A stretch of DNA of 60,613 nt from Pseudomonadota bacterium. GTDB taxonomy: Bacteria; Pseudomonadota; Gammaproteobacteria; Chromatiales; Chromatiaceae. The DNA lies in the NCBI GenBank assembly GCA_052035915.1, contig JBPOHE010000007.1, positions 1-60,613 of the forward strand, given 5' to 3'. A program made the position numbers and the translations under genes. Of this stretch, positions 2 through 55,064 are shown one piece after another (within the stretch, counting starts at the first letter, position 1; every line of letters begins with the position of its first letter). The notes below the pieces were generated by a model. That model worked only from the letters and a program-made list of their open reading frames with translations. It searched no databases and was not told the origin of the DNA.

Positions 2-319
2 GACATCGTCTCAGCCGCCGAGTTTTTGAAGGTCCACCCACAGACTCTCGGACGCCTCGCCCGTTCTGGCGAGGTCCCAGCCTCTCGCATTGGTCGCGCC
101 TGGGTGTTCCTGGAGGATGATCTTGTCACCTTTCTGCGATCGCGCTACTTTCAGCCTGGGCAGGCGCCAGCAACGGCGACTGGAGAAAAACGATGCTCTA
201 CAAACGGAATGGATCGGAGACTTGGTGGACAAGATTCACCCCGCCAGGTGGAACAGAAATACGGCGCTCTACTCGCACTACCGATAAACGGCAGGCGCAG
301 GAGTACGAAGACAAGCTGA
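2..319 (+). CDS. AlpA/excisionase-family HTH DNA-binding protein; 5' end probably truncated by the window edge
   Basis: The frame is open from nt 2. The motif ...LKVHPQTLGRLARSGEVPASRIGRAWVFLEDDLVTFL matches AlpA/Xis-type helix-turn-helix proteins. Its 3' tail overlaps the integrase start in another frame. Confidence 0.5.
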   Translation, partial: DIVSAAEFLKVHPQTLGRLARSGEVPASRIGRAWVFLEDDLVTFLRSRYFQPGQAPATATGEKRCSTNGMDRRLGGQDSPRQVEQKYGALLALPINGRRRSTKTS

Positions 320-1242
320 GGTCGGAATACTGGCGGATACGGCAACTCGGCGAGCGTCCAAGGCACACCTGGCCGGAAGCCGTGGTCCGGTGGCTTGAGG
401 AGCAGCCGCCAGGAAAGCCGAGCCTGACTGACGACAAGGCCCGGCTGCGATGGATGGACCCGTGGTTGGGACAAAAACGGCTCGATGAGATCGGGCGGGA
501 CCTGATCGACCGCATGACCAGGACGCGCAAGGCCGAGGGGGTAGCCAATGCCACATGCAACCGAATGCTGGAAGTGTTGCGTGCCATCCTACGGCGAGCG
601 CATAGGGAGTGGGGGTGGATTGATACCATTCCAGCGGTGCGCTTACTGCCGGAGCCAACCAGGAGGATACGGTGGATTACCAGAGAAGAAGCGGACAAGC
701 TCTTGGCCGAACTGCCCGAGCATCTGGCGGAGATGGTGCGGTTCAGCCTCGCCACCGGCCTGCGGGAGGCCAATGTCACCGGCCTGGAGTGGTCACAGGT
801 CGACCTCTCGCGCCGGGTAGCCTGGATACATGCTGATCAGGCCAAAGCGCGTCAACCAATCGGAGTGCCGCTGAACGCGGAGGCGGTGGTGGTGCTGCGG
901 CGCCAGGCAGGGAAGCACCAGACGCGGGTATTCACCTACTGCGGGTCTCCGGTTCTGAAAGCCGGGACCCGGGCGTGGAGACTGGCTATGCAGCGGGCCG
1001 GAATCACAGGATTCCGCTGGCATGACCTTCGGCACACATGGGCGAGCTGGCATGTGCAGGCCGGGACACCGTTGCATGCGCTCCAGGAACTTGGTGGCTG
1101 GCACAGCTATGAGATGGTGTTGAGGTACGCGCACTTGGCCCCAGAGCACCTGGCGGCGCATGCTGAAAAACTGTCTCGACCGCGCGTTTTGGACGCGACC
1201 CGGACAAATTCCGGTACATCATCGGTGGTCATCCAAAAATGA
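193..1242 (+). CDS. Tyrosine-type site-specific integrase (P4-like)
   Basis: The N-terminus MLYKRNGSETWWTRF...RRSTRTTDKRQAQEYEDKL is typical of P4-family integrases. The C-terminal catalytic region reads HDLRHTWASWHVQAGTPLHALQELGGWHSYEMVLRYAHL (R...HxxR...Y). It lies immediately next to a tRNA 3' end. Confidence 0.9.
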   Translation: MLYKRNGSETWWTRFTPPGGTEIRRSTRTTDKRQAQEYEDKLRSEYWRIRQLGERPRHTWPEAVVRWLEEQPPGKPSLTDDKARLRWMDPWLGQKRLDEIGRDLIDRMTRTRKAEGVANATCNRMLEVLRAILRRAHREWGWIDTIPAVRLLPEPTRRIRWITREEADKLLAELPEHLAEMVRFSLATGLREANVTGLEWSQVDLSRRVAWIHADQAKARQPIGVPLNAEAVVVLRRQAGKHQTRVFTYCGSPVLKAGTRAWRLAMQRAGITGFRWHDLRHTWASWHVQAGTPLHALQELGGWHSYEMVLRYAHLAPEHLAAHAEKLSRPRVLDATRTNSGTSSVVIQK

Positions 1243-1284: not shown

Positions 1285-1361
1285 TGGCGCGCCCGGAGGG
1301 ACTCGAACCCCCGACTCCCAGGTTCGAAGCCTGGTGCTCTATCCAACTGAGCTACGGGCGC
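1285..1361 (-). tRNA. tRNA-Arg (anticodon UCG), CCA encoded
   Basis: The reverse complement GCGCCCGTAGCTCAGTTGGATAGAGCACCAGGCTTCGAACCTGGGAGTCGGGGGTTCGAGTCCCTCCGGGCGCGCCA folds as a canonical cloverleaf with anticodon loop CTTCGAA. The 3' end faces the integrase gene. Confidence 0.88.
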
Positions 1362-6292: not shown

Positions 6293-8425
6293 TCAGTCCA
6301 GTCGCTCCCATACCGTGAGTTCGGCCAGGCTGTGCTGGAACTTGCGTTTGGTCTCCCGGATCACGAAGGGGACATCCCTGGGTTCACCGACGAGACGGAA
6401 CCGCCGGCCGAGGATCTCGCTCATGGCGTCCAGGGTGGTCAGATTCTCCCCGTCCTTTTTGAAGCCGCCGATCCATTCGTCGCGCTCGGTGTGCTCGATC
6501 AGCCAGGTGTAGGGGGAACTGATCACCAGCAGACCGCCCGGGCGGAGACGTTCGTGGATGCCGGCCAGGAATCGGCGCGGACTGTAGAGCCGATCGATCA
6601 GATTACCAGCGAAGATAAGGTCATAGTCGGCGTAGATCGGCTTGAGATTGCAGGCATCGGCCTGGAAGAACTCGACCCTGGATTCGCTGCCCACCAGTCC
6701 CGTCTCGCTCAGGCGGCTTTCGTGGTAGGACACCAGCTCTCCCTCCTCCGGCAACACATACTGGATGTAGCCCTTGGATTTCATCTCCTCGGCGATGCGG
6801 ATGAAACGCGCCGAAAAATCCAGACCCGTAACCCGGGCGAAGCCGGTCGCCAGCTCGAAGCTGGTGCGTCCCAGGGCACAGCCTATGTCCAACGCCCGCT
6901 CCCGAGGGCGATCCCGCATCAGCTCGAGGCAGAGGCGGGCACATTCCCGCGGATAATTGGCGACGCCGAAATACTCCCGGCCCCAGTGCAACTCGCAATA
7001 CTGGGCCACCAGCACATCGGTCTCGTAATAGTCGCTACGGACCCTGACCTGATGCTCCGACTCCAGATAACGAAATCCGGCATGCTGGAAAAAATGCCGC
7101 CGGAAGGCATAGCGCGCATCCTTGGTCGCCTCGTTGCCGGTGGAGATCCAGGAACCGCCCTTGATCAGGTTGTGCTTGGTGTCGAAGGTCGGGGTGGAAA
7201 AGTCGTCGTAGAGGGGATGCACCCGGAAACCCGGAAAGCCGTTGATGGGGGTCTCGGTCCACTGCCAGACATTACCGACGACATCGTAAAAAGGTCCCTG
7301 GGGAAACTCGTCCACCGGACAGGCCGAGGCCCAGTGTTCGAGATTGATATTCCCCGGCGCGCCCCGCCAGCCGTCCACATCCGGTAGGCCGCTGAGTTCC
7401 CGCAGGCGATACCACTCCTCCTCGGTGGGCAGCCGGATCGGCTTGTCCCGGCGCGCGCCGAACCAGTTGCAGAAGGCCTTGGCCTCCAGATAGTTGACCT
7501 CAACCGGCCAATTCCAGGGCATGGGGATTTCCTCCAGCATCAGCCGCAGACGCCAATCGCCAGTCGGCTGGGGGCGCCAGAACAGGGGATGCTCGGCTTG
7601 GCGATAGCCGCGCCAGGCCCAACCTTCCTCGGTCCACCAACGGGATTCGCGATAGCCGCCATCCTCGACAAAACCCAGGTATTCGGCATTGGAGACCAAA
7701 TAACGACCGGCTCGGAAGGCCGCTATCTCCTGTTCCAGTTGGCCGTATTCGTTGTCCCAGCCGTAGAAGGGGTGATCCTTGGCCTTGCCGAGCCGGAGGA
7801 TTCCGGCGGGCACCTCGACCAAGTCATTCGGCGGTGCCTCGCCGACCTTGGGACAGACGCGCCAGAAAGGATCCGGGCGCAGCCATTCCAAGGGCAACTG
7901 CCGGATGAGCACGGAGGAGGTTTCGAGGTGGATGCGCTCGTGCTCGATACCCATCATGATGGCCCAGAACGGCGAGTCCCAATCGATGGGCAGACTCAAG
8001 GGTAATTCCCGGATGACCCGGTCCAGGGTTTGACGCACCTCTTGCCGATAGGCCCAGACCTCGGCCACCGAGGGCCAGTCGTAATGGGCCTCGTTGAGAT
8101 CGTCCCAGGACATCTCGTCCACCCCTACCGCGAAGATGGACTCGAATCTCGGGTTGATACGCTCGGACAGCCGCTTCGCCAGCACCAGTTTGTTGATAAA
8201 AAACACCGCGGTGTGACCGAGGTAGAAAATGAGCGGGTGACGCAGGAGATCCGCCTTGCGATAGTAGGCCTCATCCCTGGCCAGGGTGGCGAAGAGCCGT
8301 TCGTAGATATCGAAGCTGGCGTGGAAATAGCGGCGGATGCTTTCCCGCTTGGCGTCGGGATCTCCCGAACGCAGGTCGGGCGTATAGGCGGGTTCGAGGT
8401 CTAATGACATGATCAATTCTCGCAA
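6293..8425 (-). CDS. ovoA: 5-histidylcysteine sulfoxide synthase (ovothiol biosynthesis) OvoA
   Basis: Three-domain architecture. DinB-like N-terminus with HERIHLETS. FGE-sulfatase-like middle region (GGSWISTG...RYAFRRHFFQHAGFRYL). C-terminal class I SAM methyltransferase (LDIGCALGRTSFELA). Length 710 aa. Confidence 0.85.
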   Translation of the reverse strand: MRELIMSLDLEPAYTPDLRSGDPDAKRESIRRYFHASFDIYERLFATLARDEAYYRKADLLRHPLIFYLGHTAVFFINKLVLAKRLSERINPRFESIFAVGVDEMSWDDLNEAHYDWPSVAEVWAYRQEVRQTLDRVIRELPLSLPIDWDSPFWAIMMGIEHERIHLETSSVLIRQLPLEWLRPDPFWRVCPKVGEAPPNDLVEVPAGILRLGKAKDHPFYGWDNEYGQLEQEIAAFRAGRYLVSNAEYLGFVEDGGYRESRWWTEEGWAWRGYRQAEHPLFWRPQPTGDWRLRLMLEEIPMPWNWPVEVNYLEAKAFCNWFGARRDKPIRLPTEEEWYRLRELSGLPDVDGWRGAPGNINLEHWASACPVDEFPQGPFYDVVGNVWQWTETPINGFPGFRVHPLYDDFSTPTFDTKHNLIKGGSWISTGNEATKDARYAFRRHFFQHAGFRYLESEHQVRVRSDYYETDVLVAQYCELHWGREYFGVANYPRECARLCLELMRDRPRERALDIGCALGRTSFELATGFARVTGLDFSARFIRIAEEMKSKGYIQYVLPEEGELVSYHESRLSETGLVGSESRVEFFQADACNLKPIYADYDLIFAGNLIDRLYSPRRFLAGIHERLRPGGLLVISSPYTWLIEHTERDEWIGGFKKDGENLTTLDAMSEILGRRFRLVGEPRDVPFVIRETKRKFQHSLAELTVWERLD

Positions 8426-8608: not shown

Positions 8609-9604
8609 ATGCGCACCCGTCGTCTCGGTAACACGGACCTCCAGCTTTCCTGCATCGGCCTGGGAACCTGGGCCATCGGTGGTCCCTGGGACTTCGGTTG
8701 GGGGCCGCAATCGGACGAGGATTCGATCTCCACCATACGTCGGGCGCTGGACCTGGGCGTCAATTGGATCGACACCGCCCCCGTCTACGGTCTCGGGCAC
8801 GCCGAACTGGTCGTGGGCCGGGCCATCAACGGACGACGCGACAAGGTCATCATCGCCACCAAATGCGGTCTGGTGTGGGACGAATGCCCCCAGCGCAAGT
8901 TATGCGGCCGACTCAAGGCGGAAAGCATCAAGCGGGAGGCGGAAAACAGCCTGCGACGGCTGGGTATCGAGACCATCGACCTCTATCAGGTCCACTGGCC
9001 GAATCCCGAACCCGATATCGAAGAGGCTTGGTCGGCCATCGGGGAGCTGATCGCCGAGGGCAAGATCCGTTATGCCGGGGTCGCCAACTTCTCCGTGGCC
9101 CAGATGGAACGACTTCAAGCCATCCACCCCATCGCCTCCCTGCAACCGCCTTACAGCCTGCTGGATCGGGCCGTCGAGAGCGAATTGCTGCCCTATTGCG
9201 TAGCCCAGGGTATCGGCATCGTGGCCCACGGCCCCATGGCCTATGCCCTCTTGACCGGGAAGTTCAGCCACTCCTATATCGCCACCCTGCCCGCCGACGA
9301 CTGGCGCCGTCGGGGCGGTTGCTTCCAGGAACCCGAACTCAGCGCCAACCTGGCGTTCGTCGACAAGCTCAAGACCCTCGCCGAACGCCGCGGCCATCAG
9401 GTGGCCCATCTCGCCATCGCCTGGGTGCTGCGCCGACCCGAGGTGACCGCCGCCATCGTCGGCGCGCGTCGCCCCCAGCAGATCGAACAAACCCATGCCG
9501 CCGCCTCTCTGGATTGGCTGCCGGAAGATCTGGAGACCATTGAGGCCTGGCTGGCCGAGCGGGATCGGATCATCAGCACCCATATAGCCTGCTCCCCGGT
9601 GTGA
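8609..9604 (+). CDS. Aldo/keto reductase
   Basis: MRTRRLGNTDLQLSCIGLGTWAIGG...IDTAPVYG... gives the AKR fold over 331 aa. The stop codon abuts the MITE. Confidence 0.85.
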   Translation: MRTRRLGNTDLQLSCIGLGTWAIGGPWDFGWGPQSDEDSISTIRRALDLGVNWIDTAPVYGLGHAELVVGRAINGRRDKVIIATKCGLVWDECPQRKLCGRLKAESIKREAENSLRRLGIETIDLYQVHWPNPEPDIEEAWSAIGELIAEGKIRYAGVANFSVAQMERLQAIHPIASLQPPYSLLDRAVESELLPYCVAQGIGIVAHGPMAYALLTGKFSHSYIATLPADDWRRRGGCFQEPELSANLAFVDKLKTLAERRGHQVAHLAIAWVLRRPEVTAAIVGARRPQQIEQTHAAASLDWLPEDLETIEAWLAERDRIISTHIACSPV

Positions 9605-9754
9605 TACCATTTCTTGATAGGTATTATCGATATTCGTAGGCTGGTGTTGAGGCGCGAAGCGCTGAAACCCAGCTTCTGAGTAGCTGGGATTCGCTTCGCT
9701 CATCGCCAGCCTACCCCATGACTTTCAGGCGGATAAACTAATAGGAAATGGTAT
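9604..9754. mobile_element. MITE-A copy 1 (151 bp, TIR ATACCATTTC/GAAATGGTAT), left boundary of low-GC islet
   Basis: Near-identical to 14639-14792. It has perfect 10-bp terminal inverted repeats and an internal long palindrome (GCGAAGCGCTGAAACCCAGC...), with a 5-6 bp deletion relative to copy 2. Confidence 0.65.
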
Positions 9755-9970
9755 GAGATCCTCTTCCGATCCCTGATCAACACTGGACACCAGCACGCGA
9801 CCGGGGGTGAAGGGGAAGCTGATAACAATGTTTATGTACTAATGATATTTTGTTGAATATTTTTATGTAGCAATGCTTCTACCGCCCATGCCCGGGGCCT
9901 TTTGGGTCGATAAGCGGGTTGTCGTCGCCGGCTCGTCCTTCTCGGACTCTATCCAGCATGAGAGAACACC

Positions 9971-10372
9971 ATGAGCATCGAAGAGGAACATCAAGACGTC
10001 CTGCAGAATATCGAGTTCGTCGTCACCCAGATCTATAGACGCCATCCAACATTGACCGACTACGGCGTTCTGCGCGCCTACGAGGCCCTGGTTCAAACCT
10101 ATACCGCGGAACTCTCGGGACGTCCGCCGAAGCCGTTGATGTTACAAGGAGGGCCTGAAGGGGTGATGCTGGAGAACCTCAGAATCATCTGTGAATGGCG
10201 TCTGGGTCGGATCAACAGGCCAAACGCCGCGGGCCGGGGAGAACAGTCAGAGCCCATTGATATTCCGACCCTGATTCAATGCCTGAAAAGGCTCATCAAG
10301 TCCGTCAACAAGTGGAACAAAAGCGGCGGCCAACAAGGGTACCTGCACTTCATGACGCAATTTATCCATTGA
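9971..10372 (+). CDS. Hypothetical protein (islet cargo)
   Basis: A 133-aa ORF preceded by an AT-rich promoter-like stretch. No recognisable motif. Confidence 0.4.
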   Translation: MSIEEEHQDVLQNIEFVVTQIYRRHPTLTDYGVLRAYEALVQTYTAELSGRPPKPLMLQGGPEGVMLENLRIICEWRLGRINRPNAAGRGEQSEPIDIPTLIQCLKRLIKSVNKWNKSGGQQGYLHFMTQFIH

Positions 10373-10687
10373 GGGCTCGGACGACAGGCCGATCGGCCTG
10401 TGGTGGGTTGGCTTCGCTTATCAGCCTCACCAAGAGACGGCTGCCTCAGCCCTCTATACGCTGGTTCCCAAGCTCCAGCTTGGGAACCACTGCGTGGCAA
10501 GCTCTTGCTTACCGACCTTCGACATTCCCAAGGAGGACCTTGGGAACGAGCGGACCTCCTGTCATCACTGCTTGACTGTGAACAACTCCTCTTCAGGGTT
10601 CACGATGTTTGCATGTGCGATTGCCCTGTTGATGGTGGCGATTAAACATGCGTGCGATTAGGCTACGCCAATCGCACCTACGGCCCT

Positions 10688-10972
10688 TTAATACACCTCG
10701 TCGTGGGTGCCAATATCATGCAAAATGATGACTTCACATCCTGTTTTCTCATCGATTTCAATGGAGAAAACAATGCGGCAATCATAGCCACGGGAGCAGG
10801 CCCACAATCCCAGCAGAGCACCGCTAAGTTTATGCGTTCACGGGGCAGGCGCAAATACATCCGCCTGCATTCGCCGAAGCACCTCATCAATATAATCTTG
10901 CAACTTGGGAGTCTGTTTTCCAAATTTCCGATAGGCTCGCCGAAATCTTGGCGTGATAACCAACAGCCTCAT
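10688..10972 (-). pseudogene. RelE/ParE-family toxin interrupted by an in-frame TGA at codon 45
   Basis: The minus-strand translation reads MRLLVITPRFRRAYRKFGKQTPKLQDYIDEVLRRMQADVFAPAP*THKLSGALLGLWACSRGYDCRIVFSIEIDEKTGCEVIILHDIGTHDEVY. The C-terminal half (HKLSG...IGTHDEVY) is the conserved RelE/YafQ-type core. The ATG overlaps the antitoxin stop (ATGA). It is not in the ORF track because of the stop. Confidence 0.6.
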
Positions 10973-11199
10973 TCATCATCCTCAAGCGTCCGATGCAACT
11001 CGGCAATGGCCTCTTCTGCAGATTGCGCCTTGAATTGGCCATCGCGGAAAGCCGCTATTGACTTATTAGCATCGACCATGATTTCCTGCCGCCGGGTTTC
11101 AATCCGGCGCTTGCTTAGAATGTCGATCAGCATTTCTTGCTGATCTGGCGGAAGTTGCAAAACGGTATTAATGGCTTGATCCAAGGTTATGGCATTCAT
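10969..11199 (-). CDS. Addiction-module antitoxin (TIGR02574-like)
   Basis: MNAITLDQAINTVLQLPPDQQEMLIDILSKRR... contains the LxLPxxxRxxL hallmark of this antitoxin family. It sits directly upstream of the RelE-like pseudogene. Confidence 0.55.
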   Translation of the reverse strand: MNAITLDQAINTVLQLPPDQQEMLIDILSKRRIETRRQEIMVDANKSIAAFRDGQFKAQSAEEAIAELHRTLEDDE

Positions 11200-11392
11200 C
11201 GTTTCCACAATCTCCTTGCTTTCATTACAGCCGTAGAAGGTACGCGATGCGTACCCTACGAGGCTCTCCTGCGTCACGCATGCGTTCGGGTGGGATCATG
11301 AGTTCTAACGCCTGCCTCAGCCGCGAGCGTAGCGAGTCGTCTGGAGGCGCATGTTAGGAAATTACGTGTATTCTCTGGTTGCATTCAGCGTC

Positions 11393-11441
11393 GTTGGATG
11401 TTGGGTTGGCGATACGGCCGCCAACCCAACCTATGGTGCTG
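11393..11441. repeat. REP-like palindrome GTTGGGTTG-N-CAACCCAAC
   Basis: GTTGGGTTGGCGATACGGCCGCCAACCCAAC. The same palindrome type recurs at 59335-59430. Confidence 0.4.
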
Positions 11442-11477
11442 GGTCCGAGTGAAAGCGCAGGTTAGCTTTCAAATTCA

Positions 11478-11729
11478 TCAGTAGATTTCTCGACGATGGC
11501 CTATTGCAATAACGATCACAACTAACTGTTCGTCGTGGATTTCGTAGATGACTCTGAAATCGCCAATTCGGATTCGCCACGCATCTCTACCTGTGAGTTT
11601 CTTGCTGCCGACTGGTCTTGGATTGTGGGAAAGCGCTTTTACCTGATCAGCAATCTCTGCTCGACGGACTTTATCAATTTTTGCAAGGGACTTCTGCGCG
11701 CTTCGAGTGATTGAGATCGATTAGCTCAT
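11478..11729 (-). pseudogene. RelE-family toxin with nonsense mutation at codon 3 (ATG AGC TAA)
   Basis: The minus-strand reads MS*SISITRSAQKSLAKIDKVRRAEIADQVKALSHNPRPVGSKKLTGRDAWRIRIGDFRVIYEIHDEQLVVIVIAIGHRREIY. The downstream 80 aa are a full-length RelE core (compare E. coli RelE ...YRLVYQVIDEKVVVFVISVGKRERSEVY). The ATG overlaps the antitoxin stop. Codon 3 is an aromatic residue in homologs (TAY to TAA). Confidence 0.65.
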
Positions 11730-11932
11730 GAGCTGACATCAGTATCTATCTCGTTCAGTGCCTGATCAAAAGGGATTATCTCGTCGCTAGTGAGTTTAGC
11801 TTCGTCGTAAGCCTTTATGTCTTCGAGTTCCTCTATGGCGCTGAGGATTTCCCGCCATTCATTAATGGGTAAGACTACGGACTTAGGAGTCTGATTAGAG
11901 TCGACAATGTATTCTGGATGAAGAATGTTCAT
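11726..11932 (-). CDS. Phd/YefM-family antitoxin
   Basis: VVLPINEWREILSAIEELEDIKAYDEAK is a typical Phd/YefM/RelB-like antitoxin of 68 aa. The stop overlaps the RelE pseudogene start. Confidence 0.7.
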   Translation of the reverse strand: MNILHPEYIVDSNQTPKSVVLPINEWREILSAIEELEDIKAYDEAKLTSDEIIPFDQALNEIDTDVSS

Positions 11933-12040
11933 GGTGTGTACCTATTGTAACCACGCTTCGGATTTCGACTAGTTTAGTAGGTCGAAAAAACACAGTGTTG
12001 CCCGACATTTTATAGAAGATGTCGGGCACAGGTGCCCGAC

Positions 12041-13159
12041 CTACCGGGCTGTCTTCACTCTATGTTTTTCGTAGGCTTCCATTTTGTATCTTTCTAAAGA
12101 CTCAATAACCAGTTTACTGACTGTGCTTCTGGTTAATCCTTCTTCATTTGCTTCTAATCTGAGCATCGAAAGATTAAGCGTCAACTCGCCCCCCGCAGAC
12201 TCATCCTTATCAGAAAACTCAAATAGTATTCTGCATGTTCCAGAGCAATTATCGCCTTCAAACTCATAATCACATTGAAGCCCGAACAATCGGATATACG
12301 GATGAATGGATTTATCACTGACGAAAAATGTCGAGTGAAGCCCCTGTCCCTTCATCTTCATGTCTTCGATCTTATCCTTCATCCACGCAATATTCTGCGG
12401 CGGGTTAGCAACGCTGTGATCTGGTGAAAAATGAATGTCCCTGGTGTCAACAAAGCGCAGCATTGAGTGACTTACGTTTTGGGTGAGATCATTCATAAAT
12501 TGTACGCGTGATTCATTCGTGAAGTCTGAATACCTGATTATTGTTACGCCGACACTTTGTTTGATGTGCCCTTCGCTTTTGAAGTGCTTTATCAAAGCAC
12601 TTGAGACTTTGTTTCCGAAGTCGATTGTTTCTGGTGCGGTATGGCTTAGCGAAATGTTTAAGGACTTACCATCGTTGCTTTTCCGTATTTCAACACGGCC
12701 CCCATGTGTGACTGTGTTTTCTCCCCAGTTCTTAACTGGATCACGTCTATCAATCTCGAAATCCATGTAGATGTGATCTGGATTATCATTTGATGCAGTA
12801 AAATTTGACATACTTGAAAGACTGAATACACCAAACTGGTCATTCAGAAGAGTCTCGTAGTCAGCCATATCTGGCAAAGACTCAAGCAAGTTGGATTCAG
12901 AATCCCAGCTAATAGTGCGAGTTTTAGATTTTGGCGATTCCTCTTTTGTCCTATAGCTCTCGCGCAAGTCCACGTACTCAAAGGGAGACAGCCCGGTCTT
13001 GATGAGAATGGGGCCTAGAACTTCCTTCTGATCTGACCCTGTAAATACCCCTCTTGCGCGCAAAACGTTTTTTAATTCGGCGTTCTTAACCTTTGTCTGG
13101 CCAATTAGCTGGCGCAAAAAATCCCTAGTAGGAAGCAAGACCTCTTCGTTGTTATTCAT
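12041..13159 (-). CDS. Hypothetical protein B of islet two-gene operon (372 aa, no recognisable domain)
   Basis: About 42-45% GC against a roughly 63% background. It overlaps the upstream gene by 8 nt (translational coupling). No Walker, HEPN, TIR or SIR2 motifs were seen. Confidence 0.6.
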   Translation of the reverse strand: MNNNEEVLLPTRDFLRQLIGQTKVKNAELKNVLRARGVFTGSDQKEVLGPILIKTGLSPFEYVDLRESYRTKEESPKSKTRTISWDSESNLLESLPDMADYETLLNDQFGVFSLSSMSNFTASNDNPDHIYMDFEIDRRDPVKNWGENTVTHGGRVEIRKSNDGKSLNISLSHTAPETIDFGNKVSSALIKHFKSEGHIKQSVGVTIIRYSDFTNESRVQFMNDLTQNVSHSMLRFVDTRDIHFSPDHSVANPPQNIAWMKDKIEDMKMKGQGLHSTFFVSDKSIHPYIRLFGLQCDYEFEGDNCSGTCRILFEFSDKDESAGGELTLNLSMLRLEANEEGLTRSTVSKLVIESLERYKMEAYEKHRVKTAR

Positions 13160-14102
13160 TATTCAAGCTCCTGTAGTCTGGCCGAAAGCTAGCTACTTTT
13201 ATCCGGGTAAAGATATCGCTCTCAAAACCTGTGGCAGCCCTCTTGACTGCATCACCATGACTAGACTCAACATAATTAGGAAATAGAAACAGCAACGTGC
13301 AACTCATGTCTTGAGTGTATTCTTTGGCTGCTTGGATTAGCCTGCGCAGAGAGTCTTGCGCAAAACCTTCTATGGTAGACAGACAGAAAATATCCTGATC
13401 ATGCCGGGACTGTGCCTTAATGATTAGCGGAATCAAAGGTGAGGTCAGAAATTCAAGCGGACATACCTTTCCATATCTCGATATGGTTTTGTCAACATAA
13501 CTTAGTGAAGTCTCAGGATAATAAAAGTGCAGGCGATCGGAGTCGTACTCATGTCTCAAATACTGCACGGTGTCGAATATAAAGTTTATTCTCTGATTAT
13601 CAACCACATGAAACGACTCAAAGCTCCAATCGGAATCAAGTTGTGAGTTTGCAATTTTTGATACGACATCATCATATGTTTCTTCGTTACTCGATAGCCA
13701 GAACAATACCCCGGAATCCCTACTTTTCGTTGTTCGCCCCAACAATTCCTGCTGTTGCTTTTTTAACTCTGAATGTTTGTAACACTCCAAGGTTTCGACT
13801 AAGTCCTTGGCGTGCGATTTGAAAGTCGACTTTGGATTGTTTTCGTACGGGTTTTGTGAATGCTTAACAGATATTACCGCGCTTTCGGCAGTCGAGCCTT
13901 CAAGTGGGCTTCTATAGCAGTACAAATAGTCAATTCCATGTGTTTCTCTTTTTCCAGTCTTTGACCCTTCACTGGCATGTTTGCTTGGCTTTCTACATGG
14001 CAGTTCTTGCCCAGATAAAACGCCTTCCCACCCCAATAAATGGAAGAAATTGCCAACGATATTCTCGCCAATTTCTCCAATTTTTTTAGATTTTTCACCC
14101 AT
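13152..14102 (-). CDS. Hypothetical protein A with N-terminal PD-(D/E)xK (Mrr/Hjc-like) nuclease signature, 316 aa
   Basis: The N-terminal approx. 85 aa read IGEIGENIVGNFFHLLGWEG...THGIDYLY...ESAVISVKH. This fits the E...D...(E/S)xK pattern of restriction-endonuclease-like folds. The remaining approx. 230 aa are unassigned. It is the first gene of the operon, with an AT-rich promoter region upstream (14103-14220). Confidence 0.55.
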   Translation of the reverse strand: MGEKSKKIGEIGENIVGNFFHLLGWEGVLSGQELPCRKPSKHASEGSKTGKRETHGIDYLYCYRSPLEGSTAESAVISVKHSQNPYENNPKSTFKSHAKDLVETLECYKHSELKKQQQELLGRTTKSRDSGVLFWLSSNEETYDDVVSKIANSQLDSDWSFESFHVVDNQRINFIFDTVQYLRHEYDSDRLHFYYPETSLSYVDKTISRYGKVCPLEFLTSPLIPLIIKAQSRHDQDIFCLSTIEGFAQDSLRRLIQAAKEYTQDMSCTLLFLFPNYVESSHGDAVKRAATGFESDIFTRIKVASFRPDYRSLNNE

Positions 14103-14638: not shown

Positions 14639-14792
14639 ATACCATTTCTCGATAGGTATTATCGATATTCGTAGGCTGGTGTTGAGGCGCGAAGCGCTGA
14701 AACCCAGCTTCTCAGTAGCTGGGTTTCAGCGCTTCGCTCATCGCCAGCCTACCCCATGGCTTTCAGGCGGATAAACTAATAGGAAATGGTAT
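14639..14792. mobile_element. MITE-A copy 2 (154 bp), right boundary of low-GC islet
   Basis: A direct repeat of 9604-9754 with intact TIRs and a perfect internal 21-bp-arm palindrome. Confidence 0.65.
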
Positions 14793-52906: not shown

Positions 52907-54688
52907 TCACAACAACCCGGCGTAGTCGGCTATCCCCGGATTGCCTTTTACCCCCACGAGTTTCGGGCTGTTGACTTTGGCCAGCTTCACCTGGCCTTTG
53001 AGGCGGAGATAATCGGCGACCACATCCCACACCGGACGCCCGGGCGCTTGGGAGCCCACGGTGGCCCAGCCGGAGACGATATAGTTTTTCCCCGCCTCGA
53101 CCGGGGTACCGTCGTCCAGGGTCATCTGACTGATGCGCTGGCCCATCTCCCGGCTGGGATCACAGACATAATCCAGCCCCCCGACGCGCACCATATCCCC
53201 ACCCTGCTGGTAATAGGGGTCCGGATTGAACAGGTTGTCGCAGACATCTTCGAGAATGGTCTTGATGTCGGCGCCGGTCATCTCGCGTCGATAGGTTTCC
53301 GGGTAGGTGATACAGGTCTGGTCCAATACCTGTTCCATGGTGATCGCCTGTCCCGGCAGGATGCTGGTACCCCAGCGGAAGCCGGGCGAGAGGGCGATCT
53401 GAGCGTCATTGACCTCCCGCAGGGCATCGCAGATGACCTGGTCGAAAGTGCCGTTGAAGTTCCCCCGTCGATAGAGGGTGGCCTCGGTAACCGCCAGTTT
53501 CTCCTCCAGCCGATCCTTGTAAGGCGCACGCACCTTATCGATATAGGCCTGCATCTCCGGGTCGGCGGGCAGGAGGTTGGAGAACACCGGCAACAGCCGG
53601 TAGCGGAAATCCCGTACCTGTCCGCCCTTCACCTCCAAGTCCATGACGCCGAGAAACTTGCCGTTGGAACCGGCATTGGTCACCAGGGTACGCCCGTTGC
53701 GGTTCTTGATGAGGCTCGGCGCCGGCACACCGTCATGGGTATGGCCGCCGAAGATGACGTCGATACCGCTCACCCGCTCCGCCATCTTGAGGTCGACATC
53801 CATGCCGTTGTGGGAAAGCACCACTATGACTTCGGGTTTTTCCTTCGCCTTGAGCTTGTCGACGACTTCCTGCATGTGCTTGTCTTCGATGCCGAAGGTC
53901 CAATCCGGGATAAAGCGCTGCGGGTTGGCGATGGGGGTATAGGGAAAGGCCTGGCCAATGACGGCCACGCGAACCCCGCCTACCTCCTTGATGGTATAGG
54001 GGCGGAAGGCCTGGCCGCTGTCGCCGTCGAAACCCGCGTATTTGGCGAATTTGTAATCGAAGAGGGCGTCCTCCTTGACCTTGATGTTCTGCGCCACGAA
54101 CTCGGCCTTGAGCTCGGCCAGGTTCTCCATGACCTCCTGGTCCAGATAGGTGAACTCCCAATGGCCGGTCATGACATCCACGCCCAGGAGGTTGCAGGCC
54201 CCTACCATGTCCTTACCCCGGGTCCAATAGGCGGTTCCCGATCCCTGCCAGGTATCGCCGCCGTCCAATAAGAGGGTATTGCCTGGGCCCCTGGCTTCCC
54301 GCAGGCGCTTCACCAGGGTCCGCAGATGGGCGAAGCCACCAACCCGACCATAGCGCTTGGCCGCCTCATCGAAATGGAGATAGGTGAAGGCATGGGCGTC
54401 GAGGCCACCGCCGGTCAGACCATAGTGTTTCAACAGGGCCTCGCCGACCAGATGCGGCGGTTTGCCCAGGGCGGTGCCAACGCCCAGGTTGACATTGGGT
54501 TCCCGGTAATAGACTGGATTCAGCTGGGCATGGGTATCAGTGATATGCAACAGGCTCAGATTACCGAATTTGGGGACATCATAGATGTCGGCCGCCTGGG
54601 TCTTGGCGGCAGCCAAGGACCTGGGCAGGATCCCCGCCGCCCCGGCCATGGCCATCAAGTGGAGAAACTCACGTCTGGAGATACTCAT
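52907..54688 (-). CDS. soxB: Tat-secreted SoxB-like thiosulfohydrolase (metallophosphoesterase/5'-nucleotidase family)
   Basis: Tat signal MSISRREFLHLMAMAGAAG. LHITDTHAQ and LLLDGGDTWQGS metallophos motifs. VMTGHWEF. A 5'-nucleotidase C-terminal domain. Start trimmed to the ATG after GAGGAG. Generic UshA-type nucleotidase cannot be excluded. Confidence 0.65.
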   Translation of the reverse strand: MSISRREFLHLMAMAGAAGILPRSLAAAKTQAADIYDVPKFGNLSLLHITDTHAQLNPVYYREPNVNLGVGTALGKPPHLVGEALLKHYGLTGGGLDAHAFTYLHFDEAAKRYGRVGGFAHLRTLVKRLREARGPGNTLLLDGGDTWQGSGTAYWTRGKDMVGACNLLGVDVMTGHWEFTYLDQEVMENLAELKAEFVAQNIKVKEDALFDYKFAKYAGFDGDSGQAFRPYTIKEVGGVRVAVIGQAFPYTPIANPQRFIPDWTFGIEDKHMQEVVDKLKAKEKPEVIVVLSHNGMDVDLKMAERVSGIDVIFGGHTHDGVPAPSLIKNRNGRTLVTNAGSNGKFLGVMDLEVKGGQVRDFRYRLLPVFSNLLPADPEMQAYIDKVRAPYKDRLEEKLAVTEATLYRRGNFNGTFDQVICDALREVNDAQIALSPGFRWGTSILPGQAITMEQVLDQTCITYPETYRREMTGADIKTILEDVCDNLFNPDPYYQQGGDMVRVGGLDYVCDPSREMGQRISQMTLDDGTPVEAGKNYIVSGWATVGSQAPGRPVWDVVADYLRLKGQVKLAKVNSPKLVGVKGNPGIADYAGLL

Positions 54689-55064
54689 CTTCTTATCGCT
54701 CCTCATAACCATACCGGGGCTTGGTGACGGGTTATCGGGCTGTCGCCGCTTGGAAGCCTGGCTCCTCCTGCCTTCCTGGTGACAACAAGCCGAACCCGGA
54801 TATCGCCAAGTATAAGATGGCACCAGCGGGACAACATCCCAGGTCACCAAGGGTTTTCCCGGATATTCCCTCCTCTCCCCTTTCGCCACGCCGTCCTGCC
54901 CCTGTCCCCGGCCACTGGCTAAGCCGGGGAATGTGTGGAAGGATCCGGGGCGCGCCTGCTGTGAAAGTCCCTGGCCCAACCGGCGGCGGAAGCGGTTCTC
55001 TCGAACCCGGCCACCACAACAGCCAGGCGGCAACGAAACCCAAGGTCAATGAGGAGAGAAGGTC

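Follow-up and report, generated by a model that had tools for sequence, protein, structure and literature searches.

Known routes of toxin–antitoxin decay

Chromosomal toxin–antitoxin (TA) modules are known to decay in two steps. As long as the toxin is active, loss of its antitoxin by mutation would kill the cell, whereas loss of the toxin would be tolerated. Because antitoxin loss is lethal at this stage, function is expected to be lost first in the toxin, leaving an intact 'orphan' antitoxin that would then be free to decay later. In Escherichia coli, TA decay by nonsense mutations has been reviewed (PMC7167474), and decay of ccdO157 is a described case of toxin-first erosion (Mine et al., 2009, as cited in PMC7167474 and PMC13617665). 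Among TA copies of Photorhabdus, the toxin alone is a pseudogene in 185, both genes in 186, and the antitoxin alone in 8 (Belot et al., 2026, PMC13617665). Following a different track, a chromosomal antitoxin may provide anti-addiction, an established concept illustrated by the chromosomal ccd of Erwinia facing the ccd of the F plasmid (Saavedra De Bast et al., 2008, as cited in PMC7167474 and PMC13617665).

The locus described here shares three features with toxin-first erosion as seen in ccdO157 and Photorhabdus (PMC13617665): toxins are lost by point mutation, truncation or insertion sequence (IS) while the antitoxin open reading frame (ORF) persists; the modules sit in small, high-turnover 'TA islets'; and close relatives carry multiple independent lesions. 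It differs in that the lesions form a standing polymorphism, at about 99% identity, in metagenomes of an uncultured bacterium rather than a pattern across cultured species, and in being known from sequence alone.

Two TA pairs in a variable islet

The window, that is, the whole stretch of 60,613 nucleotides that was analysed, comes from an uncultured sulfur-oxidising gammaproteobacterium that has SoxB. Among named relatives, its PurA is closest to those of Sedimenticolaceae and Chromatiaceae MAGs, at 75-77% identity. The features of concern are the following.

11726..11932, minus strand: antitoxin 1, 68 aa, RelB-like, ORF uninterrupted
11478..11729, minus strand: toxin 1, pseudogene of the RelE family, TAA at codon 3 (11723-11721)
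10969..11199, minus strand: antitoxin 2, 76 aa, no Pfam family, ORF uninterrupted
10688..10972, minus strand: toxin 2, pseudogene, YafQ-like, RelE superfamily, TGA at codon 45 (10840-10838)
10843-10841 and 10792-10790, minus strand: Pro44 and Arg61, missense sites of toxin 2 that replace an invariant Leu and an invariant Cys
12041..14102, minus strand: putative GAPS4 anti-phage gene pair, 316 aa and 372 aa, low GC, in the same islet and adjoining the TA pairs
9604..9757, plus strand: left copy of a 153-bp direct repeat, MITE-like with terminal inverted repeats, islet border
14639..14792, plus strand: right copy of the repeat, 95% identical to the left one, islet border

Both pairs have the architecture of type II TA operons, the antitoxin lying directly upstream of the toxin on the same strand, with a 4-nt ATGA overlap between antitoxin stop and toxin start (11729-11726 in pair 1, 10972-10969 in pair 2). 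The initial annotation had described both antitoxins as intact and their ATGA coupling as preserved, and the translations agree. Antitoxin 1, with a RelB-like Pfam match at 7.8e-08, is intact in 19/19 related contigs, with three amino-acid variants and no stops; antitoxin 2 is intact in 17/17. The latter has no credible family in Pfam or NCBIfam, even at E up to 5. Its arrangement with the toxin is found elsewhere: in Thiocapsa marina a 77-aa gene, 61% identical to antitoxin 2, stands upstream of an intact toxin 2 homologue with the same 4-nt overlap, and a gene 91% identical to it stands upstream of P0001, the toxin 2 homologue considered below. The 60 kb of the window contain no paralogue of any of these toxins and antitoxins.

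These pairs belong to a foreign-looking, variable, low-GC defence and TA islet of 5 kb. GC of the adjoining gene pair is 0.43. Precomputed Pfam assignments for proteins identical to its 316-aa and 372-aa products are PF26115 (PDDEXK_GAPS4) and PF26110 (GAPS4b_N), while direct Pfam and PADLOC scans of the candidate pair gave no matches; PADLOC likewise returned none for both toxins and four neighbouring proteins. In other strains the islet carries an AAA_21 ATPase or BrnTA. Many metagenome contigs end at the left repeat, and at the right border contigs of other samples break off some 100 nt beyond the Memo/AMMECR1 gene. Since these ends coincide with the 153-bp direct repeat, they are ambiguous as evidence of strain variation; real variation of the cargo is shown by contig L001 and by the BrnTA-bearing contigs. 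In a crude sigma-70 scan of 10400-12200 neither operon is preceded by a promoter-like site, the two terminator-like matches in that interval are at chance level, and Rfam reports two tRNAs over the whole window, none of them in the islet.

Toxin 1, stopped at its third codon

Basic residues and a C-terminal tyrosine of RelE are used in catalysis. Toxin 1 reads MS*SISITRSAQ...HRREIY* on the minus strand of the window (asterisks mark stops). It scores 55.2 bits against Pfam ParE_toxin (PF05016; cut-off 23) and 35.8 bits against TIGR02385, RelE_StbE (cut-off 27.9), curated thresholds that place it in the RelE_StbE branch of the RelE/ParE superfamily. Because these scores exceed the cut-offs and an identical 83-aa protein, codon 3 apart, is encoded by 11 other contigs, the frame is a real gene and not a chance ORF. 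A phmmer search of the PDB retrieves 2khe (6e-9) and E. coli RelE (4fxe and 4v7j, about 3e-5). The basic stretches WRIRI and FRVIY of toxin 1 align with YKIKL and YRLVY of RelE, and its C-terminal ...GHRREIY aligns with the ...GKRERSEV(Y) region, where the printed RelE alignments stop one residue before the final Tyr; the full match, ...HRREIY to ...HARDVY, is seen only against 2khe. By its likeness to RelE, the family is predicted to be a ribosome-dependent mRNA endonuclease.

The resemblance to RelBE (RelE of E. coli or Thermus thermophilus, with a RelB-like antitoxin of PF18506) thus covers a full-length alignment with 4fxe, 4v7j and 2khe, Tyr3 included, and an antitoxin placed upstream with a 4-nt overlap. 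The differences are that the nearest genomic relative of toxin 1 is only 59% identical, and that codon 3 is TAA, so that no complete ORF remains and no toxin is made. The initial annotation had read the gene as ATG AGC TAA followed by a RelE core and had predicted a change from TAY to TAA. Both points are confirmed, the first by translation, Pfam and TIGR02385, the second by a sister allele that has TAT and by the residue found at this position in 61 homologues collected in a genome-contig scan with the repaired toxin (Tyr in 51, Phe in 7, His in 2, Cys in 1). The orthologous locus itself was not found among the 78 loci of that scan, where identity reached 59% at best. The suggestion that a single, minimal lesion had inactivated the gene also stands: the other 82 codons are identical to those of the intact allele, codon 3 alone being different, and the TAA is very recent. 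In the window, then, toxin 1 is a pseudogene of the RelE family.

Toxin 2, broken more than once

Toxin 2 consists of 44 N-terminal residues, a TGA and, still in frame, 49 C-terminal residues. When the stop is repaired, 438 homologues are found; of the 120 listed, almost all have a length of 94 aa, and the 27 that were aligned run through the stop position with no gap (best E = 6.8e-49); because they span it, the frame is a real gene rather than a chance ORF. Of some 15 billion proteins searched, no intact one comes closer than 86% identity. Codon 45 encodes Gly in homologues and is GGA in the sister allele.

The family is an outlying one. Against YafQ_toxin (PF15738), toxin 2 of the window scores 23.6 bits, its repaired form 25.9 and intact homologues 25-29, with E-values of 1e-5 to 1e-6 and a gathering cut-off of 30, which makes toxin 2 a relative of PF15738 and not a formal member. 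The toxin 2 profile matched no sequence in the PDB. An AlphaFold model of P0001, a homologue 86% identical to repaired toxin 2 and not the window pseudogene, has a pLDDT of 88.8, and Foldseek superposes it on YoeB/ParE 6n90 (TM 0.77), YafQ 4mmj (0.76), RelJK 3oei (0.78) and YoeB 2a6r (0.76). The model thus predicts the beta-alpha-alpha-beta4 microbial RNase fold of RelE, YoeB and YafQ. With the YafQ/YoeB-like toxins (PF15738; DinJ-YafQ, YefM-YoeB) the family has in common the annotation of its members as YafQ-family or RelE/StbE mRNA interferases, a model that superposes on YoeB, YafQ and RelE at TM 0.75-0.78, and conserved His, Asp and Arg with a C-terminal His-x-x-x-Tyr. It differs from them in falling just below the Pfam gathering cut-off with no PDB sequence match, in a partner antitoxin that belongs to no Pfam family and is neither DinJ nor YefM, and, for the window copy, in its lesions.

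In the P0001 model the TGA falls at the start of strand beta-2; the 44-aa product is therefore devoid of the sheet and of the conserved H47, D64, R66, H90 and Y94. Beyond this stop, Pro44 and Arg61 occupy positions where Leu and Cys are invariant in 34 intact homologues (L44P, C61R), so that toxin 2 carries more than one lesion and lacks both a complete ORF and the invariant residues of its family. The initial annotation rightly placed a TGA at codon 45 that splits the sequence, but the rest is not 'otherwise complete', and a single minimal lesion does not describe this gene, given the two substitutions and the several types of lesion found among relatives. Repair of the TGA alone may not restore toxicity, and a resurrection of toxin 2 must include reverting P44L and R61C. 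What holds for both genes is that they are of the RelE superfamily and bear independent point nonsense mutations.

Alleles in other metagenomes

Nineteen contigs from other metagenomic samples, recovered by a search for contigs encoding the proteins, on which all allele counts rest, share the locus at 98.5-99.8% identity to the window. Thirteen contigs have TAT (Tyr) at codon 3 of toxin 1; the window and five other contigs (L002, from JGI 3300006092, L005, L008, L010 and L094) have TAA. At the level of sequencing runs, SRR14610228 gave TAT, and SRR14610232 and SRR14610245 gave TAA. Two of the TAT copies (L004 and L009) are cut at codon 69 by an IS630/DDE_3 element, and the toxin is intact in 11 related contigs. 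A DNA pattern laid across the toxin 1 start found only two metagenome contigs, both already counted.

The situation of toxin 2 is more severe. Its TGA recurs, identical, in nine other contigs, and none of 12 complete copies is intact, each one carrying the TGA, a frameshift of +1 T at codon 61, or the two together. In three further contigs the gene ends at codon 5: at an IS3/rve junction in L092, and at the same base in L003 and L094. Every contig that reaches the lesion sites is broken, and in several ways, the IS3 junction being a further allele, so that toxin 2 is an older, population-wide pseudogene. Its polymorphism looks unconstrained, with 7 non-synonymous to 3 synonymous changes and an indel.

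The window is a metagenome-derived contig, and consensus assemblies can mix strains, so that both stops might be artefacts of sequencing, assembly or binning. This we hold to be improbable in the extreme. Both lesions are substitutions, not homopolymer indels, and the same base changes recur in samples that were independently sequenced and assembled (JGI, ENA and several SRA projects). Since the same locus is present in 19 contigs of other samples, with TAA in five and TGA in nine, the stops are not sequencing errors; the recurrence refutes an artefact in practice.

Could the cells go on producing small, tuned amounts of toxin through read-through, near-cognate reinitiation or recoding at leaky stops? 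Among bacterial stop codons, TGA is the leakiest. The ATGA coupling would bring ribosomes to the site, and in toxin 1 the Pfam domain begins at residue 5, past the stop, so that a product initiated just downstream would hold the whole domain. However, toxin 1 has no in-frame ATG, GTG or TTG from the TAA to codon 71, and in toxin 2 initiation at the earliest in-frame start past the TGA would yield no more than 39 aa. The RNA 3' of each stop is no more stably folded than its shuffled versions (z = -0.76 and +1.23), therefore there is no SECIS-like or read-through element; recoding through SECIS is rejected on this basis, and programmed read-through, which the initial annotation had named among the outcomes that would overturn its reading, finds no support in the folds. 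Codon 45 is Gly, not Cys, in homologues, and the sister alleles have plain sense codons, TAT and GGA. TAA and TGA end neighbouring genes normally and, because they terminate the four genes of both operons, the genetic code is standard. Finally, toxin 2 is also frameshifted or IS-disrupted in other strains, as expected of a pseudogene. Taken together, leaky expression is a very improbable reading, if less so than artefact.

Decay or selected loss

At least five independent loss-of-function alleles are thus found, all in toxins (TAA and IS630 in toxin 1; TGA, +T and IS3 in toxin 2) and none in antitoxins. This asymmetry admits a second account, in which toxin loss is positively selected, for example through the cost of a ribosome-dependent RNase or of suicide by abortive infection, with antitoxins actively kept as anti-addiction immunity against homologous toxins brought in by plasmids or phages, or as transcription factors. 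Variants that abolish toxin 1 are at appreciable frequency (TAA in 6/19 including the window, IS in 2/19), while synonymous variants are absent; that absence, together with several toxin knock-outs of independent origin among sequences about 99% identical, could reflect positive selection rather than drift. The islet is a defence hot spot, whether by its GAPS4 pair or by the AAA_21 ATPase or BrnTA of other strains. TAA is moreover found with each of the two upstream haplotype blocks and with either state of codon 61 in toxin 2, a four-gamete pattern consistent with spread by recombination; that it lies on more than a single flanking haplotype calls for recombination, recurrence or a chimeric assembly. 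Contigs from metagenomes are consensus sequences of uncertain phase.

The counts are nevertheless too small to carry this account. Five events in toxins against none in antitoxins give p of about 0.05 by gene length, a marginal value, and pair 2 alone (3 against 0) gives about 0.17. The comparison of antitoxin with toxin divergence called for by the initial annotation has a mixed outcome: toxin 2 does look unconstrained, at 7:3 against 3:4 for antitoxin 2, but the contrast is not significant. An intact ORF of 230 nt is expected at about 1% divergence even without selection, and antitoxin 1 must stay intact anyway wherever toxin 1 is live; judging from these contigs, divergence is too low to show that antitoxins are kept by selection. 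In PLSDB, 72,556 plasmids hold no close mobile relative, with best identities of 52% for toxin 1 and 47% for toxin 2, though this collection hardly samples the uncultured host. As in the ccd of Erwinia, a chromosomal antitoxin could here neutralise a homologous incoming toxin; by contrast with Erwinia, where the chromosomal toxin is present, the toxins are broken, and no matching mobile toxin was found in PLSDB. The lethality asymmetry accounts for the pattern without extra assumptions. We therefore regard selected loss as unlikely. Slightly more doubtful still is its stronger form, in which the five or more knock-outs segregating and recombining at about 99% identity, in many samples, would reveal positive or balancing selection still acting on toxin activity, for example through a trade-off between phage defence and its cost, with antitoxins kept as immunity against homologous toxins carried in by mobile elements. 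If true, it would be a natural-population demonstration of anti-addiction.

These RelE-type modules of a variable defence islet are best read as decaying in the ordinary way, toxin first, and we consider it likely that two horizontally acquired type II TA operons of the RelE superfamily, a RelB-like/RelE pair and a YafQ-like toxin with an unnamed antitoxin, have entered the first stage of that decay. Of the two alternatives offered by the initial annotation, recent selection or pseudogenisation caught early, the second fits the data. Pair 1 would be at the very start: a single change from TAT to TAA at codon 3 ends translation after Met-Ser, and in nature this allele segregates alongside a live and an IS-disrupted one. 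Pair 2 would be further along, an intact toxin being absent from all related contigs found, with the window copy predicted to lose its whole beta-sheet and active site to the nonsense codon and to bear two substitutions of invariant residues in addition. Live toxin alleles would be toxic, antitoxins would still be expressed and would autoregulate their operons, and the asymmetry would arise because losing an antitoxin is lethal, not because antitoxins are selected for. Decay is not general in the islet, since in BrnT/BrnA, the third module of sister strains, the toxin is fully intact in 5/5 contigs.

Significance

No new mechanism is revealed by this locus. For annotation, the consequence is that both toxin genes should be entered as pseudogenes and both antitoxins as orphan antitoxins. 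Metagenome contigs are usable to follow TA decay, and they provide here a natural, well-sampled example of the death of chromosomal TA modules, in which pair 1 is caught at its first mutation, polymorphic against a live allele, while the adjoining pair 2 is dead population-wide via several lesions. On the reading that we consider likely, this confirms toxin-first decay in an uncultured environmental bacterium.

Gene layout and reading frames

Two neighbouring toxin-antitoxin (TA) pairs lie on the minus strand, and in both the TGA that terminates the antitoxin gene overlaps the ATG of its toxin as ATGA:

10688-10972, minus strand: toxin 2; 44 residues, a TGA at codon 45 (10840-10838), then 49 further residues in the same frame
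10969-11199, minus strand: antitoxin 2, upstream of toxin 2; 76 aa counted from the ATG, frame uninterrupted
11478-11729, minus strand: toxin 1; translated as MS*SISITRSAQKSLAKIDKV...IGHRREIY*, with TAA at codon 3 (11723-11721)
11726-11932, minus strand: antitoxin 1, upstream of toxin 1; 68 aa, frame uninterrupted

Translation of both toxin frames bears out the initial annotation as to the position and nature of the two lesions. The product of toxin 1 is reduced to Met-Ser, the next in-frame ATG, GTG or TTG coming at codon 71. In the fold modelled for toxin 2, the stop falls where strand beta-2 begins; the part that can be made consists of beta-1 and two helices only, and the conserved H47, D64, R66, H90 and Y94 are all downstream. 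We find no grounds for assuming recoding or a non-standard genetic code, since the RNA 3' of either stop is no more stably folded than its shuffled counterparts (z = -0.76 and +1.23), codon 45 encodes Gly, not Cys, in toxin 2 homologues, and the four genes of the two operons end in ordinary TAA/TGA terminators.

Family assignment

Sequence matches indicate that the frames of both toxins are real genes of known families. With X at its stop, toxin 1 scores 55.2 bits against Pfam ParE_toxin (cut-off 23) and 35.8 bits against NCBIfam RelE_StbE (cut-off 27.9). Its full length can be aligned with RelE proteins of solved structure (2khe, 6e-9; E. coli RelE 4fxe and 4v7j, about 3e-5), the aligned part taking in the N-terminal M-x-Y, the basic WRIRI and FRVIY stretches and the C-terminal HRREIY, and its antitoxin is matched by Pfam RelB-like at 7.8e-8. 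Repaired toxin 2 has 438 homologues, nearly all of the 120 listed being 94 aa long; their source annotation is YafQ-family or RelE/StbE mRNA interferase, and the match runs without gaps across the stop in 27/27 aligned homologues. Because the family scores 25-29 bits against Pfam YafQ_toxin, just below the cut-off of 30, and a PDB sequence search with it returned no match, we modelled a structure, using not the window copy but P0001, its closest intact homologue (86% identical to repaired toxin 2). The model (pLDDT 88.8) superposes on YoeB/ParE 6n90, YafQ 4mmj, RelJK 3oei and YoeB 2a6r with TM 0.75-0.78. Antitoxin 2 has no Pfam family. In Thiocapsa marina, a 77-aa gene 61% identical to it stands upstream of an intact toxin homologue with the same 4-nt overlap, and a gene 91% identical to it stands upstream of P0001; antitoxin 2 is therefore the cognate, full-length partner.

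Alleles in related contigs

Exact-sequence look-ups with both antitoxins and the 44-residue piece of toxin 2 yielded 19 distinct contigs (L numbers below) from NCBI, JGI, ENA and numerous SRA runs. Their identity to window 10400-12100 is 98.5-99.8%; they were aligned and each variable site tabulated.

Toxin alleles in the window and related contigs
Toxin 1, codon 3 TAA: window, L002 (JGI 3300006092), L005 (SRR14610245), L008 (SRR23459706), L010 (SRR14610232), L094 (SRR19905886)
Toxin 1, codon 3 TAT (Tyr): 13 other contigs
Toxin 2, P44 + stop45 + R61: window, L002, L008, L098, L099
Toxin 2, L44 + G45 + T inserted before the codon-61 TGT (frameshift, stop after 63 codons): L001, L006, L007
Toxin 2, P44 + stop45 + codon-61 T-insertion frameshift: L005, L091, L095, L097

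A sequencing or assembly artefact is excluded as the source of the stops. At codon 3 of toxin 1 the TAT and TAA alleles are exactly the TAY-to-TAA change that had been predicted, and more distant homologues carry Tyr (51/61) or Phe (7/61) there. Save for this one base, the window gene is the live 83-aa allele. Toxin 1 is knocked out in a second, independent way in L004 and L009 (both TAT), where homology is lost at codon 69 and a transposase of IS630 type (DDE_3 and HTH domains) follows. The TAA is found with either upstream haplotype block and with either codon-61 state of toxin 2 (four gametes), a sign of recombination, of recurrence or of consensus contigs that are chimeric.

Toxin 2 is more damaged than a single nonsense codon in an otherwise complete gene would imply. 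The stop at codon 45 stands; P44 and R61 bring the departures from the family consensus (...PA-L44-G45-THKLSG... and ...WACS-C61-GYDCR...) to three, L44 and C61 being invariant in 34/34 intact homologues. The TGA is present in L093 as well. In L092 the toxin 2 sequence gives way at codon 5 to an IS3-family element (rve, HTH_Tnp_1), and L003 and L094 break off at that same base. Three haplotypes are present. As none of 12 complete copies is intact, toxin 2 is dead in the whole population sampled; a collection of 15 billion sequences has, as its closest intact protein, one that is 86% identical.

The antitoxins are intact, as the initial annotation had it: antitoxin 1 is open (68 codons) in 19/19 contigs, with variants L4F, N13S and T15A, and antitoxin 2 (76 codons) in 17/17, with N45H, F56S and A64S. 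Selection that disfavours the toxins and favours the antitoxins, through positive selection or anti-addiction, might be read from this. All five independent loss-of-function events struck toxins (p ~0.55^5 from gene length, or 0.05, by our own arithmetic); pair 2 alone gives 3 versus 0 (p ~0.17). A live toxin 1 in itself keeps antitoxin 1 under constraint. The ratio of non-synonymous to synonymous changes is 3:4 in antitoxin 2 versus 7:3 in toxin 2, a suggestive but not significant contrast. At about 1% divergence an open 230-nt ORF calls for no special explanation. PLSDB, which barely samples such hosts, holds no close plasmid-borne homologue (best 52% and 47% identity). On these grounds we keep selection as an improbable minority rival, neither supported nor excluded; antitoxin retention through selection is unproven.

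The islet and its host

Window backbone GC is 60-64%, and that of the 10-14 kb region 43-51%. On its two sides the islet has genes for an aldo-keto reductase and for Memo/AMMECR1.

9604-9757 and 14639-14792: direct copies, 95% identical, of a 153-bp element, bracketing the low-GC islet
9971-10372, plus strand: 133-aa ORF, no family match; conserved beside the TA pairs in every contig reaching there (L001, L002, L091, L097, L098)
12041-13159 and 13152-14102, minus strand: overlapping genes, 372 and 316 aa, GC 43%
L001, 299-2014: AAA_21 ATPase, 571 aa, upstream of antitoxin 1
L010 (23-521), L003, L097, L098, L099: BrnT/BrnA pair upstream of antitoxin 1; toxin intact and 100% conserved in the 5 contigs

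Proteins from other samples identical to the 372- and 316-aa products carry precomputed Pfam matches to GAPS4b_N (PF26110) and PDDEXK_GAPS4 (PF26115); our Pfam and PADLOC scans of the two proteins did not recover this assignment, and the genes are a putative anti-phage pair of GAPS4 type. Sister strains differ in the cargo they carry upstream of antitoxin 1, which, with the TA pairs and the GAPS4-like genes, makes this a small, variable defence/TA islet. The intact BrnT confines toxin decay to the two RelE-type modules.

The 153-bp copies have terminal inverted repeats (ATACCATTTC...GAAATGGTAT) around a long palindrome, look like a MITE, and are end points of many metagenome contigs; they could be MITE insertions, or recombination sites for exchange of islet cargo. 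Islet spacers hold GC-rich hairpins followed by CTAC or CTAT (10655-10690, 11225-11262, 11395-11440, 12021-12045), which look like REP-type elements. In L001 (NCBI metagenome contig WBZP01009845.1), positions 2029-2452, upstream of antitoxin 1, hold duplicate copies of two intergenic islet segments (window 10400-10687 and 11305-11441), which suggests that these hairpin-rich spacers are mobile or recombinogenic. A XerC/D-like tyrosine recombinase with weak NCBIfam matches (193-1242, plus strand) adjoins a tRNA gene (1288-1361, minus strand) and may lie at the border of a further integrated element. As to the host, it is an uncultured gammaproteobacterium whose PurA shares 75-77% identity with proteins from MAGs of Sedimenticolaceae and Chromatiaceae. 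An OvoA-like protein of ovothiol synthesis (DinB_2, FGE-sulfatase and methyltransferase; 6293-8425, minus strand) and SoxB (52907-55033, minus strand) point to a sulfur-oxidising lifestyle.

Probable toxin-first decay

The lesion pattern fits a known process, in which chromosomal TA modules decay toxin first. As long as a toxin is live, antitoxin-null mutants would die, so that loss of function could begin only in the toxin. Pair 1 would then represent step one, still polymorphic, and pair 2 a state in which toxin death is fixed and further lesions build up. Decay of TA modules through deletion or nonsense mutation is reviewed for E. coli (Fraikin et al., PMC7167474). Among Photorhabdus TA copies, 185 have a pseudogene in the toxin only, 186 in both genes and 8 in the antitoxin only (Belot et al., MBE 2026, PMC13617665), a pattern like the one seen here. 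The early pseudogenisation first proposed holds for toxin 1, one base from its live allele, but not for toxin 2, an older, multiply damaged, population-wide pseudogene. Families and process are already known, and the locus is a fresh instance of both; what it chiefly offers is a neat snapshot, taken in nature, of TA erosion, together with a correction to annotation.
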